In this document: positions 1-9,000 of the stretch, piece by piece
Layout: every line of letters starts with the position of its first letter
Position numbering within the stretch: position 1 is the first letter of the stretch
Source: Candidatus Cloacimonadales bacterium
GTDB lineage: Bacteria; Cloacimonadota; Cloacimonadia; Cloacimonadales; JAFGVF01
DNA length: 64,000 nucleotides
Direction: 5' to 3'
NCBI GenBank assembly: GCA_963663475.2
Contig: CAXXJV010000001.1
Coordinates: 1,088,001 to 1,152,000 of the forward strand
Made by a program: the position numbers

Positions 1-3000
1 TAGTAAGTTTGAAGTAACTCAAGCAGAATATGAAGCTATAATTGGATCAAATCCATCTAGTAATTATGGTATTGGAGATCACTATCCTGTAAATAATGTA
101 AGCTGGTATTCTGCACTAACTTATTGTAATGAGTTAAGTATAGCTGAAGGACTAACTCCTTGTTATGATTTAGAAACATATACTTGTGATTTTACAGCTA
201 ATGGCTATAGATTACCAACCGAGGCTGAGTGGGAATATGCAGCAAGAGGTGGAGCTAATGACAGTGGTTATATTTATTCTGGTTCGAATGACTTAAATAG
301 CGTGGGTTGGAATATGGATAATTCAGGTAATACCAGTCATCCAGTGGGAGGAAAAGCTCCAAACATATTGGGCATATACGATATGACTGGAAATGTATGG
401 GAAATCTGTTATGATAGATACGCCGCTTATGACTCAGAACCTCAAGTAAATCCTACAGGACCTAGTACAGGTAATACAAACGTCTATCGAGGAGGCAGTT
501 GGTATAATGGTAGCTATCATTGCAGAATATTTAAGAGAAATAGTAGCTCATTATCTTTAGCATCTTTAAATGTAGGTTTTAGGTTAGTAAGAAGTAGTAT
601 TGAATAAAATTTAAATAAAATTCAGAAAATAAAAAAGGGATTCGATTAGCAAAATGTTTTAACTCCGAATCCCTTTCTAAACTTTAGTAATTGAATATTA
701 CTTAACAAGATATCAAGTTGAACCCAATAATGCATTAGACCTTTGCGAATAGCAGAATATTCTTCTGCAAAAGTAAGATCCATAATTTCTCCGAATATAT
801 AAAATATATGCGTCAAAATTCTGTAAGCTATTTGCTAAAAGAATCTAGTACTCTTCATCAAAGTTCTACTGCACCATTCGATTGAAAAAAACATATTGAC
901 GAAAATTTTATCTTAAATAAGTCTGAATCCTATATATGAAAAATAGAATAATTGTTATAGATATTGGAAATACAAACCTAGTTATTGGTCTATATGATAA
1001 TGACTTACTACTTTCTTCTTGGCGGATTCATACAGATAAGAATCGCACGGAAGACGAGTATTTTGTTGTCATATCATCATTGCTTATATCGATTAAGGAG
1101 GATATAGGGAATATTGCTATAGCTGTTTTATCGTCAGTGGTTCCGCAGTTAAATAGAGTAATTCGCAAGATGTTTGAGAAGTTTTTTGACTGCAAGTTTG
1201 TGCAAGTTAATTCTGAAATGGAATTGAATTTAAAGTTTTTAGTAGCTGATTACAGTCATGTAGGAGCTGATTTATTAGTGAATGCATATTCATCGATAAA
1301 TAAGTATCAGACAAATACAATTGTCTGTGATTTAGGTACAGCAACCACAATTCAATTAACAGGCAAGGATGGCACTTTTTATGGTGCATCTATAATTCCA
1401 GGAGTTAAGAGTTCTTCTAATTTATTATTTGAGAAGGCTTCTCAGTTAGCAGATATTAAACTAGAAAGACCTAAAAATATCTTAGGTCAAACTACTAAAG
1501 ATGCCCTTCTTACTGGAATTATTAATGGACATGCCTTCATTTTAGATGGATTTATCCGCAAGATTAAAGAAGAATATAATCTGGGAGAATACAAAACTAT
1601 AGCCACGGGTGGTATTGCAAGATTGATTTGTAGCTGTTCACAAGAAGTTGAGATTATTGATGATTCATTAATCTTAGATGGCTTGAACCTTATCGGTAAA
1701 AATATTAAATAATAATTAGGATTGTTATTAATGATTAAATTATATAGAACAATAATCTTGTTCGTAATACTAGTGTCTTGTGTAAGTTTGTTTGGAATTG
1801 ATTATAAATTAGGTGATTTTAAAAACTTTTATGGTAACAAGATAGACTATTATGACTTGGGAGCTAAACAGTTTCAGGATAATATATTTTGGAGTGGGAG
1901 GTTTCCTACAACTGAAGAAGAAATTGATTTTACAAACAATAGAGTTGGGATTATTACCAAATTCAACTCTGTACAAGCCTATCCTAAGATTTATATAACA
2001 ATTGACCAATATTTCGATAACTTATTTGCTTATTCATTCGATAAGTTACTTTATGATAAGACAATCGAATTTTTCCAGCAAGAGGAAAGAGAAGAATCTG
2101 GAGGTTTAATACCAGATTTAGTCTTTGATTTACCTAAGTTTGCTAGGTCCAAGACTGTTAAGCGAATCTTCGGTGATAAAGCAGGAAGATTAAGCTTCTT
2201 TGGTAGTGAACGCCTAACAATTTCCGCTACTAGCACCAAAAATGATAACATTGCCCTCTCTGAAGGTTCTAATGCCTCAACTCTTACACCTAAGATGGAA
2301 CAGAAGTTAAATATGCAGTTAAAGGGTACAATAGGTGAAAAAATCCATGTTGACCTTAAATATAATTCAGATCAAGAAGAGACTTTCTTTGACCCTAATA
2401 ATATTAATATTTCTTATAAGGGCTTTGATGATGAAATTATTCAGTCTATTGAAGCTGGTGATATCTCACTTGATTTATCAGGTTCTTCTCAGTATGTTGG
2501 TTCTATTTCTTCTTCACAAGGACTTTTTGGTATCAGAACAGACTTAAAGGTTGGAGCTTTGGAAATCACAGCTATTATGAGTCAGGAAGAAGGAAAGAAA
2601 AATAAGATGACCTTTGAATCTAAGGCTCAAGCAGACTCTTCTGTAGTTAATTCAAAGGATTATACTAGAAGAGATAGGTATTATATAATCAATCCTTATG
2701 AGCTATACATGCTTTATCAAGATGGCGATGTGATAGCTGGTACTTCAACACCAGTTCCTCAAGGCTGGATAAATAATGCAATCAAGCTGGATAATAACGG
2801 TTCTCTCTTGCTCTTTGATGACCAAAAGTTACCTGCAGATGGTTCTCTCTTAGTTTATTTAGATGATATGAATGCTACTAATAATACTGCTACAATTCCT
2901 GGCTTTGAAGATGTTCAAGCTTCAAGTCCATTTACTCCTCAATTTGATTTATTGGAAGAGGGAGTTGATTACTTCTATGACTATGATTCTGGTATTTTAA

Positions 3001-6000: not shown

Positions 6001-9000
6001 CTGAAAAGTATGATGCTTCCTGGAATTATAGTAAATCAAAGACTAATAATCCTTGGGCAGACTATACTCTTGGATCTATATCTCTATCAGCAAATGCTTC
6101 TTTAACAGATCAGATTACACCAACTAGTGCTGATACCACTTATACCTGGAAGGGGACTGTGTCTTATAATTTAAACCTAGGAAATTTACCACGCGGTTTT
6201 AAGATTTGGAATGATTTGAAACTTAATCTATTCCCTTCTTCTATTGATAATACTTTCACTATGGATGCAAAAAATCCACAGAAATATGTACTCACTAGAA
6301 CTGATACTCTTGTTTATTGGCGAGATGATACATCATCATCAAATATTAATTCTAAAATTGCTACTACTGCTAATACTGTTACATTCCCTATTCTTACAGG
6401 GAAAAATAAAACTTACCTGAATACTACCTATAAACTGACAACTACTCGTGATTTGAAATATGAGAAAAGAATTAATGATATTAATATTGGTGAAGAAACA
6501 AAATATAATCAGATAATGACTTATAGCTTCACTCCAGACCTCTTTACTGATTATTGGAATTTCTCTTCTAATGGTGAGGTTAGATTTAATGAAAAAAGAA
6601 CTCAGAAATCTAATGTAGCTGCTGTAATTGAAGAAGAAGGTATCCAATTTAAACATGATGGTGATGTTGATAGATCATTAAACTTCAATATGACTTTAAG
6701 AAATTCAGATTTACTTTCTTCACTAGCAAACTCTCTGCAAGCTAAAAGAACTGCTAGAGAAAATAACCAGTCTGCCTCTGAACAAGAAAGCTCACCAGAT
6801 CTTGATAAAGGTATTTCAACCCAAGAAGATAAAGACAAAATAGATAATGATAATGAAGAGAAAGACCAAGACCAAGAAAGTGAAAAAATAGAGGAAAAAG
6901 CAAAGCTTGCAGAAAAAGAAAATCAAGAAGCTGAAATTAAAGATGAAATGTCTGTCAAAGATAAAAAAAGATTAAGAGATTTGCAGAATGAAGAAAGAAA
7001 AATTATGCAGACATTAAATGAAAAGTTAAGCCCAGAAGTTAGAAAAGAAATGGAAGGTAATATCGAACGAATTAGAAAGGAAATAGCAGAACTCTCTAAT
7101 GAAATATATCGTCCTAAAGATCAAACAAACCCTAAAGATAAAGACTATGCTGAGACAGGTCCTGATGGTGACCAAACAGCTGAAAGCCAAACTGGTAAAA
7201 GCTTTAGGTTTGGTCTGACCGATATCGTAACTTTCTTAAGTAAAATAGAAAACTTAGACATTTCTTACTCTAATGATTATTCCATGAACTATGATAACCT
7301 AGAAGAAAGACCATCTTATAACTTCCAATTATCTATCCCTTATTCCCTAGATAATGAGTTTATTAATGTCAAAGAAAATAATAATACTATTGACCTCTCT
7401 TCAGGCCTTTCTTTAAACAGATTTGACACCCAATTCGGTTACTCGCTAAATGATAGGAAAAGATGGTCAAATACTACAACCCAAACTATTACAACTGTCT
7501 TTCCTGATATCTCAGTTAACATTAATGATATTCAGAGATATATAAGATTACAAGACTACTTGACTAGCTCTTCTGTAGGAACTAACTTCTCTTATCAAGT
7601 TAAAGAAGAAGGTGAAATAGGCTTTACTGAACCTAATTCTCAAACTCTTACTACTTCTTTCTCACCCCTCTTGAGCTGGCGAGGAAATTGGATAAATAAT
7701 GTTCAAACTAGTATCTCTTATAATTGGTCACAGACTGAAACTACAACCAATAAAGTCTCCTTTGATTATGTAACAAACGTTAATAATCAAAGCTTAAATG
7801 GTAATATTAACTGGGCATTTAGAGCTGTTGATGGTTTTAAATTACCATTCATCTCTAAAACAATTGTTATTAAAAATGATATGACTCTAAAAACAGACTT
7901 TAGCTGGGATAAGAGCTATTCTACTGAAAAAGGTAATGCTCAAGAAATTGTTACTAAACACCTTGTGAATTATTCTATTGTGCCTGGTGCTGCCTATAAC
8001 TTCCATAGAAATATTAAAGGTGGTACTGATTTTTCTTATAAACTTACTCAAGATAAGAAAAGTAATAGAGATATTCAGATCACTTCCTTTGCTATATGGA
8101 TTGAGATTACTTTCTAAATTACTGAAATTCTAATCTTTAAACCCAAATGGTGAAGTAGCACTCTTCATCAAAGGTTTAATGTATTATTTGGGTTTAAAGC
8201 CTAAATTACATAAATTTATGAATTTTAAATAGGTAAATAACAGTCTATTATTGCTTTTAAAAAAAAGGGGTTGACACTAAATCTAAGGATTAAAATAAAT
8301 GGCTTTATAATAAAATAAAACTTAGGAGGAGATAATGTCTGAAAACTTAAAATATGGATCTATTAGTTCCACTCAGGCCATGGAGTTAGAAAACAAGTAT
8401 GGTGCACATAACTACCATCCACTACCAATTGTTATTGCAAAAGGAGATGGTGCTAAAGTATGGGATCCTGAAGGAAATGAATATTTCGACTTCCTTTCAG
8501 CTTATTCAGCTGTTAACCAAGGACACTGTCATCCAAAAATTATTGATGCTCTCATCGAGCAGGCTAAGACTTTAACTCTTACTTCAAGAGCTTTTTACTC
8601 AAATAACTTAGGTGATTATGAAAAATTCATTACTGAATTCTTCGGATTTGATATGGTATTACCTATGAACTCTGGTGCTGAAGCTGTTGAAACTGCTATC
8701 AAATTATCACGTAAATGGGGATATGAAAAGAAGGGTATCGAGAATGGAAAAGCTGTTATCGTATTTGCTGATGGTAACTTCCACGGTAGAACTGTAACTA
8801 TTATTTCTGCTTCAGTAGATCCAGATTGTAGAGAAGGATTTGGTCCTTTCACACCTGGTATCCACAAAATACCTTACAACAATGCTCAAGCTTTAGATGA
8901 TTATTTAACTGCTGAAGGCAAAAATGTAGCAGCTTTTATCGTTGAACCTATTCAAGGTGAAGCTGGTGTATTTGTTCCAGATGATGGTTACTTAAAAAGC

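Follow-up and report, generated by a model that had tools for sequence, protein, structure and literature searches.

Cloacimonadota appear to have a secretion system of type IX (T9SS) whose translocon works without the canonical motor and ring: in the genome of a Candidatus Cloacimonadales bacterium, carriers, sortase and cargo signals are present beside the SprA translocon, and GldK, GldL, GldM and GldN are undetected by the sequence models from which their absence is judged. This supports the central proposal of a genome-wide survey's note on this DNA. On balance, and just on the probable side, we read the system as a working translocon of an older, GldKLMN-free kind, with a conserved ExbB–ExbD–ExbD–TonB operon as its client and with GldKLMN added once. 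In prevailing models, the GldLM motor and the GldKN ring are essential and energy is spent in pulling cargo off SprA. If most SprA lineages export CTD proteins without GldKLMN, the translocon would have come first and the motor would have been added in one clade. Fibrobacter, Ignavibacterium and Melioribacter, which are in culture and are not pathogens, would then allow the role of energy in type IX transport to be tested directly, and tools that require GldKLMN would miss one of the main routes of surface export in the motorless lineages.

The system shares with the T9SS of Flavobacterium johnsoniae and Porphyromonas gingivalis SprA/Sov, PorV-family carriers, the PorU sortase, type A-like CTDs, a PorE-like protein and Skp. 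It differs from them in the lack of GldL/PorL, GldM/PorM, GldN/PorN and GldK/PorK, in the lack of an evident PorG (by cysteine tail or bamA locus), and in its nine PorV-family genes, seven of them adjoining cargo. Among mostly openly readable papers, we found neither a survey of FCB lineages for SprA in the absence of GldKLMN nor a link between TonB and the T9SS.

The SprA translocon

The window, namely the whole stretch of 64,000 nucleotides of contig C1 that was analysed, beginning at contig position 1088001 rather than 1056001, holds sprA as a single intact frame, with an alternative TTG start at position 1722 (Table 1). The assignment of SprA was confirmed on a larger sample: TIGR04189 is over its cut-off in 115 of 121 genomes of the phylum, the source genome included, and in none of 14 control genomes. 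SprA is missing from all six genomes of one genus (1.5–1.6 Mb, single contigs, 97–99% complete), which represents a single loss event. No motor gene recurs next to sprA across 80 loci.

Table 1. Features in and near the window (window positions, except where C1 is given)
Feature	Position	Strand	Evidence and remarks
Gene for a 960-aa protein, 3' end only; C-terminal FGE-sulfatase domain; partial GldK match, not GldK	2..607	+	TIGR03525 91.4 bits vs 350; no GldK-site cysteine
Type III pantothenate kinase, housekeeping, directly 5' of sprA	936..1712	+	near sprA again in 8/80 loci
sprA/sov, outer-membrane translocon, 2128 aa	1731..8117	+	TIGR04189 484.1 bits, cut-off 200; PF14349 61.6 bits
Three tandem CTD cargo genes (325, 322, 322 aa)	11446..14379	+	TIGR04183 46–48 bits, cut-off 23
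Three tandem CTD cargo genes (543, 543, 538 aa)	22373..27551	-	TIGR04183 37–38 bits
CTD cargo gene (546 aa)	48878..50518	+	own CTD search
Three CTD cargo genes (1007, 804, 802 aa)	54936..62859	+	TIGR04183 and own search; only the first over TIGR04183 cut-off
Start of PorQ-like PorV-family barrel gene, 326 aa, extending past the window	63695..64000	+	NF033709 139 bits; PorQ model 141 vs 220
Operon: TonB-dependent receptor, ExbB, ExbD, ExbD, TonB, 1061-aa CTD cargo, PorV-family barrel	C1:1160553-1170280		outside the window, starting 8.5 kb past its end

Carriers, sortase and cargo

The PorU-like protein proposed earlier is present: the gene at C1:408426 reaches 571.6 bits against a cut-off of 420, and retains the GHG and ACDV motifs, which we take to be those expected of the C25 His/Cys pair. 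The PorE-like gene also stands, as a below-cut-off match (201 bits vs 600). Where seven PorV/PorQ-family barrels were counted earlier, NF033709 matches nine genes, four of them over its cut-off of 90; none of the nine reaches the PorV or PorQ equivalog cut-offs (best PorV score 151 vs 250). Seven of the nine adjoin a CTD gene. For PorG, a crude cysteine-tail screen gave one borderline barrel-like protein without a family match, and the bamA locus held no candidate. Skp is single-copy and is also found in one SprA-less genome. The order of a cargo gene followed by its own carrier gene recalls type B cargo with its cognate PorP/SprF shuttle, as described in the part of that report available to us (PMC12618676); here, in contrast, the dedicated carriers belong to the PorV/PorQ family of barrels, and the signals group with CTDs of type A.

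An iterative search of our own yielded 161 CTD proteins, amounting to 14% of the coding residues of the genome; in the window, TIGR04183 is over its cut-off in 7 of 16 scanned proteins. A signal-like start is found in 145 of the 161, compared with 552 of 1926 other ORFs. CTD signals follow SprA rather than genome size. In particular, the joint loss of signals and SprA claimed earlier was found again in four SprA-less genomes, which have 0, 1 (below cut-off), 0 and 0 matches, and since a smaller, 1.4 Mb SprA-positive genome has 16, the co-loss cannot be put down to a small genome alone. Furthermore, a YncE/BtuG-like propeller, the partner of a TonB receptor, was read at 26 SprA-positive and 4 SprA-less loci: at all 26 of the former it has a C-terminal CTD, and at all 4 of the latter it is a lipoprotein that lacks one. 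This split may be taken as indirect support for real export; the lipoprotein propellers of the SprA-less genus sit at the end of a long branch and may have been imported.

We think it very improbable that no type IX export takes place and that SprA and its CTD signals are remnants or have some other function, even though the support for export in this organism is all comparative. The SprA frames, of about 2000–2150 aa, are open in most listed genomes of the phylum, and the share of coding residues given to CTD proteins, their loss together with SprA and the split between CTD and lipoprotein all speak against it. In Fibrobacter succinogenes, moreover, envelope cellulases are without CTD peptides, according to the part of the report at hand (PMC6851124).

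Absence of the motor and ring

As claimed earlier, GldL, GldM and GldN were not found in the source genome, nor in five other genomes of the phylum, with a Myroides control positive for each; the Myroides GldL, GldM and GldN sequences, compared with the whole ORF set of the genome, gave best E values of 0.34, 0.29 and 0.22, respectively. A full GldK is likewise lacking: the model matches six FGE-domain proteins, partially only, among them the protein at the window's 5' end (Table 1), and none of the six has the conserved GldK cysteine at the aligned site. The cysteine was assessed by alignment in place of an RGCF motif screen; the Myroides site itself reads KGCF.

The four components could instead be present and have diverged past the reach of sequence models, which were presumably built from Bacteroidia. 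SprA itself drops from about 2800 bits to about 480 in Cloacimonadota, which lends this explanation some weight. We nevertheless consider it improbable, given the missing cysteine and the fact that no adjacent pair of ORFs with GldL-like and GldM-like membrane layouts occurs among 2857 ORFs (a screen without a positive control). The distribution of GldM outside the phylum argues in the same direction.

Distribution of the motor in other lineages

Elsewhere in the FCB group, 50 genomes with SprA, of unstated completeness, were surveyed for GldL, GldM and GldN, and the three occur together in Myroides only. Each of them was detected just once in 56 genomes, namely in the Myroides control. Within the phylum of Myroides (91 genomes), GldM scores are bimodal and leave no grey zone: 23 full-length proteins score 260–612 bits and the other matches at most 61 bits. 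SprA is present in 62 of 80 of these genomes, including all 20 that are GldM-positive, and the remaining 42 have SprA without GldM. Moreover, four genomes in which SprA scores 2490–2630 bits have no GldM, and in three of them neither GldK nor GldN is over cut-off (one of these searches lacked a ringing positive control). The apparent lack of the motor is not specific to Cloacimonadota and is wider than earlier noted.

In a quick, unrooted, single-gene tree of SprA, the eight GldM-linked rows are united in a single clade (support 1.0) within a set of 39 others, nested inside motorless ones, and therefore GldKLMN was probably a late addition, gained a single time on the stem of Myroides' clade. 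A motor loss inside Bacteroidia was also considered for five high-SprA, GldM-less genomes and rejected: four were placed in the sister clade instead, and the row of the fifth (G203), a wrong ORF, was left out of the tree and is unplaced. A late motor would run against a 2025 proposal which, in the part of the paper available, infers that it was as part of the gliding machinery that the T9SS first evolved (PMC12635249).

A precedent exists in Melioribacter and Ignavibacterium, for which one sentence describes SprA–PorV–Plug without other T9SS proteins (PMC11705866); there too, outer-membrane parts are retained and motor and ring are absent. That report, in the part seen, concerns two genera and offers no reading of mechanism or evolution, whereas the present case includes many FCB lineages, PorU and a large cargo set.

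A possible mechanism of export

By analogy with the known pathway, Sec would carry the cargo into the periplasm, the CTD would dock on a PorV-family carrier within the lateral opening of SprA, and the carrier would then depart from SprA, its cargo now displayed at the surface. Most carriers are presumably dedicated to the adjoining cargo gene. The weakest inference concerns the release step. Our best guess, held tentatively and at somewhat less than even confidence, is that release is unpowered, with the exchange of carriers and the cleavage of CTDs acting as a ratchet; we rank it ahead of a moonlighting Ton-family motor driving release, which, taking all such motors jointly, seems doubtful. 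In F. johnsoniae, removal of the motor leaves cargo trapped on SprA, according to the available part of PMC10994853, so unpowered release would require a different SprA–carrier interface.

The ExbB–ExbD–ExbD–TonB operon

The gene content of the operon 8.5 kb downstream of the window is as described earlier. ExbB, ExbD and TonB are over the cut-offs of PF01618, PF02472 and PF03544; the receptor, over cut-off for both PF07715 (33.4 bits) and PF00593 (65 bits), has an N-terminal extension, a plug and a barrel. In 18 of 18 rows it carries a TonB-box-like strand, which was judged by eye against the expected pattern. The 1061-aa cargo ends in a CTD, matches no Pfam or NCBIfam family and is not a SusD-family lipoprotein; its body is beta-supersandwich-like by weak matches only, its model partly matches PorZ and PorU structures, and in a fold search nothing matched it over its whole length (TM at most 0.15). 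Gene order is conserved in 16 of 16 genomes read.

Co-inheritance with SprA, the other point made about the operon, is borne out: the ExbB orthologue occurs in 106 of 114 SprA-positive and 0 of 6 SprA-less genomes of the phylum. Two of the eight misses are contig breaks; in the other six the flanking marker is absent, as it also is in both operon-positive genomes of the family holding five of the six, and G048 lacks the cargo as well as ExbB. In four genomes of the other order, the operon lies about 7 kb from sprA.

This tight co-inheritance and this proximity are points against our proposed explanation, and they favour the view that the operon also powers SprA, with TonB pulling SprA, the PorV carrier or an adaptor to extract the carrier with its cargo. 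The same ExbB clade, as assigned from a quick tree, is found in WOR-3, KSB1, Calditrichota, Latescibacterota, Krumholzibacteria and some Ignavibacteria; in loci of KSB1-like genomes and of Krumholzibacteria it has PorV-family genes as neighbours, in two KSB1-like genomes without a receptor. Extraction of cargo does require energy in F. johnsoniae, as stated in the part seen of PMC10994853. However, a receptor with a TonB-box-like strand belongs to the operon itself, six housekeeping genes lie between the operon and the divergently oriented sprA in the four genomes mentioned, and none of the ExbB/MotA matches in two SprA-positive, GldM-negative genomes, a single-chromosome Zixibacteria genome (0 of 4) and a Calditrichaeota-named one (0 of 2), belongs to this clade. 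No invariant column is seen at the SprA N-terminus in 21 aligned sequences. A complex prediction for the TonB C-terminal domain with the 130 N-terminal residues of SprA, scoring 0.00, counts neither way. Finally, no SprA-positive genome with a Ton motor but without TonB receptors was found among 51; since all 51 have such receptors, their Ton motors have ordinary clients.

The operon as energiser, the role suggested in the genome-wide survey's note, is accordingly not the leading reading, and we consider it unlikely. The operon comprises a complete receptor of its own, and its CTD cargo adjoins a PorV-like barrel that is likewise its own, so that dependence of the operon on SprA would explain co-inheritance equally well; it is more likely a client of the T9SS than its energiser. 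In detail, and with fair confidence, the Ton motor would power its own receptor, and the surface partner, exported by the T9SS on the operon's barrel, would play a SusD/BtuG-like role, its pairing with the receptor being suggested by gene order. SusC/SusD and BtuB/BtuG of Bacteroidia similarly combine an N-terminally extended TonB receptor with a surface partner and with a Ton motor that has two ExbDs, according to the accessible part of PMC10350073, the partner there being a lipoprotein and here a CTD protein. An evolutionary version of the powered reading, which we also think unlikely, holds that the ancestral T9SS was powered by TonB–ExbB–ExbD, with TonB extracting the loaded PorV-family carrier and the first cargo being lids of TonB receptors, and that Bacteroidia later swapped in GldLM and GldKN.

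Other motors of the genome

Four ExbB/MotA-family motors, rather than a single one, were found in the genome. Any Ton motor of a lineage, or an Agl-Glt-like cluster near porU, might as another 5:2-family motor drive export, a reading that we regard as quite unlikely. The cluster (C1:415850-427108), 3.5 kb from porU, encodes a barrel-like protein, a 2147-aa TPR protein, ExbB, two ExbDs and an FHA/TonB-like protein resembling the FHA-TonB_C proteins of Myxococcota, and is absent from 6 of 6 SprA-less genomes. F. succinogenes has an ExbB/ExbD/ExbD/TonB operon that we take to be the same kind of cluster. On cellulose, this operon and CTD cellulases rise together, according to the part of the report available (PMC6851124). 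On the other hand, an orthologue of the cluster is present in only 41 of 56 SprA-positive genomes. A 3-contig, 99% complete SprA-positive genome is without it, as are 7 of the 8 genomes that represent the other order. A third motor (ExbB–ExbD–TonB-like, C1:1705850) has a relative retained in SprA-less genomes, which weighs against it as well. A second TonB receptor of the genome lies at C1:487108, and a FliG–MotA–MotB cluster adjoins exopolysaccharide genes.

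Type IX Secretion Components in the Genome

[quoted passage not shown] These proteins, recovered in the genome by an iterative search that converged from three seeds, account for 142,395 of the 989,120 residues of its coding set. The genome also encodes a PorU (571.6 bits, catalytic motifs present), a PorU2-like protein, a PorE-like protein below the cut-off and nine PorV-family matches, four of them over the family cut-off and seven adjoining a CTD gene.

The survey's note had reported neither GldL, GldM or GldN nor a full GldK, and both absences held in this genome: the GldM, GldN and GldL models found no match, nor did the Myroides indicus sequences of the three proteins used as queries at full sensitivity, and the partial GldK hits are due to six FGE-domain proteins lacking the conserved GldK cysteine. 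That Gld proteins are present, diverged beyond detection, is improbable and ranks behind the use of a Ton-family motor.

Locations of T9SS-related and neighboring features (window, window coordinates; C1 and C2, contigs)
Feature	Location	Content
SprA	window 1731-8117	TIGR04189, 484.1 bits against a cut-off of 200
IS4-family transposase	window 34261-35736	275 bits against a cut-off of 250
TonB-ExbBD operon	C1:1160553-1170280	TonB-dependent receptor, ExbB, two ExbD, TonB, CTD cargo (1061 aa), PorV-family barrel
Operon cargo and PorV-like barrel (L001)	C1:1166058-1170280	conserved DxDxDG-type acidic repeats in both, possibly calcium-binding
Propeller locus (read with L303-L332)	C1:487108-490540	TonB receptor, then YncE/BtuG-like propeller
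Agl-Glt-like cluster (L006)	C1:415850-427108	near porU; barrel-like gene, 2147-aa TPR protein, 91-aa protein, ExbB, two ExbD, FHA/TonB-like protein
PorU2-like/PorV2-like pair	C1:1304911-1310888	
Best PorV candidate	C1:1893843-1898150	adjoins M6-like inactivated metalloprotease cargo
Motor-like locus (L007)	C2:161493-165194	FliG-like, MotA, MotB and ExeA-type ATPase adjoining exopolysaccharide wzc genes; no further flagellar genes seen within the locus
Prophage-like genes	C2:317250-330834	identified by eye; immediately upstream of skp and of lpx-like genes

Distribution of SprA and of the Gld Motor

SprA exceeds the cut-off in 115 of 121 Cloacimonadota genomes and is missing only from the six genomes of one small-genome genus, in agreement with the phylum-wide presence, save one reduced genus, previously proposed. 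A motif scan returned at least 119 stretches, and all of the 80 loci fetched carry a SprA-type frame. The genomes of 50 of these loci, none titled Cloacimonadota, were searched together with six from the phylum; by record titles, which may be wrong, and with unstated completeness, the 50 include Ignavibacteria, Kryptoniota, Kapaibacterium, Fibrobacter, Eisenbacteria, Krumholzibacteria, WOR-3, KSB1, Calditrichaeota, Latescibacterota, Zixibacteria, Marinimicrobia and Gemmatimonadota. GldM, GldN and GldL are each over the cut-off in one of the 56, Myroides indicus. Among 91 genomes of the phylum of Myroides, GldM is full-length (260-612 bits) in 23 and otherwise at most a fragment of 61 bits; SprA occurs in 62 of 80 of these genomes, 20 with GldM (all of the GldM-positive ones) and 42 without.

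In a FastTree phylogeny of 48 SprA rows, one of which was a wrong ORF and was dropped, the eight GldM-linked rows form one clade (support 1.0), probably sister to Rhodothermia, and the other 39 fall outside; these include three Cloacimonadota besides our genome, in one of which GldM was searched. Wherever the root is placed outside the GldM clade, the most parsimonious history has the motor gained once. This conflicts with the inference, in the available text of PMC12635249, that the T9SS arose initially within the gliding machinery.

Judged by gene content, the motorless T9SS is a real and widespread variant of a known system, resembling the canonical T9SS in its presumed working but devoid of the GldL/GldM motor and GldK/GldN ring. 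In the portions of the sources at hand, older surveys confine the T9SS to Bacteroidetes (10.1101/031039, PMC5445135), SprA is stated for other FCB phyla (PMC12611786), a possible T9SS is mentioned in Cloacimonadota (PMC11285876) and in Chlorobi, Fibrobacteres and Ignavibacteriae (PMC5837995), and Melioribacter and Ignavibacterium are given PorV, SprA and Plug without other T9SS proteins (PMC11705866); the accessible parts of PMC8542988 and PMC11205867 hold nothing further on the motor. The breadth of the motorless form, its ancestral reading and a TonB link were not found described in the literature covered, which mostly excludes subscription papers.

Signs of Functional Export

Three indirect lines agree in suggesting functional type IX export. 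No CTD match passes the cut-off in four SprA-less genomes, and a smaller SprA-positive one has 16 matches. Signal-like starts are found in 145 of 161 CTD proteins versus 552 of 1926 others. Finally, a YncE/BtuG-like propeller, whose gene follows that of the second TonB receptor in this genome and which is present in 38/41 genomes, was read at 30 loci: it ends in a CTD in 26/26 SprA-positive loci (13 with a TonB receptor within 1.5 kb) and is a CTD-less lipoprotein, with a lipobox and an acidic run, in 4/4 SprA-less loci. This split is one lineage event, and the SprA-less lipoproteins may be imports (branch 2.18). In Fibrobacter, envelope cellulases carry the CTD signal, whose peptides are missing from the mature form (PMC6851124, available text).

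Candidate Energy Sources

The co-inheritance of the TonB-ExbBD operon with SprA was borne out: its ExbB has an orthologue in 106/114 SprA-positive versus 0/6 SprA-less genomes, two of the eight apparent exceptions being contig breaks inside the receptor gene. All 16 genomes read keep the gene order (a contig end truncates the operon in one, and another shows a single ExbD after filtering). In four genomes of the phylum's other order, some 7 kb separate the start of the operon from sprA, which is divergent; the genes in this interval are housekeeping genes. Co-inheritance fits the operon's proposed role as energizer, but a cargo needing SprA to reach the surface would equally tie the operon to SprA without its motor acting on SprA. 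The receptor is complete, with a TonB-box-like strand in 18/18 rows. The cargo shares 46-56% identity among the loci viewed in the phylum and belongs to a large family without a name (3311 representatives at E 0.001); its predicted fold (pLDDT 81) matches PorZ and PorU over short stretches that we take to be its CTD. Outside the phylum, members of the operon's ExbB clade, which has support 97 in a quick tree, adjoin receptor and cargo in WOR-3, receptor and PorV in Krumholzibacteria and PorV pairs in two KSB1-like genomes; elsewhere they lack such neighbors. The clade is absent from a Zixibacteria genome consisting of a single chromosome, where a different ExbB-ExbD-ExbD-TonB clade, also found in Myroides, is present. 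Double duty of the operon motor on SprA is, on balance, unlikely, and the operon is more probably a client of the translocon.

More doubtful still is double duty of another Ton-family motor. TonB receptors are present in 51/51 SprA-positive genomes tested, and our genome has four ExbB/MotA-family genes. The ExbB of the cluster that we take to be Agl-Glt-like, a label with Atlas support for one protein, is in 41/56 SprA-positive genomes, and a third ExbB type is retained in genomes without SprA. Across 80 loci, the neighbors of sprA are housekeeping genes, with an ExbB/ExbD pair, not of the operon clade, in one.

In F. johnsoniae, cargo loads on SprA-PorV without energy and its release is energy-dependent (PMC10994853, available text). 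By analogy, loading in the motorless form would need no energy. For its release step we tentatively favor, at somewhat less than an even chance, a motor-free ratchet driven by the exchange of carriers and cleavage by PorU, since sprA is not accompanied by a dedicated motor from one lineage to the next. Export across the outer membrane without a power source is known from other systems. A gene labeled by eye as an lptF/lptG-like permease lies near sprA in 22 of the 80 loci (L075-L154), in several phyla.
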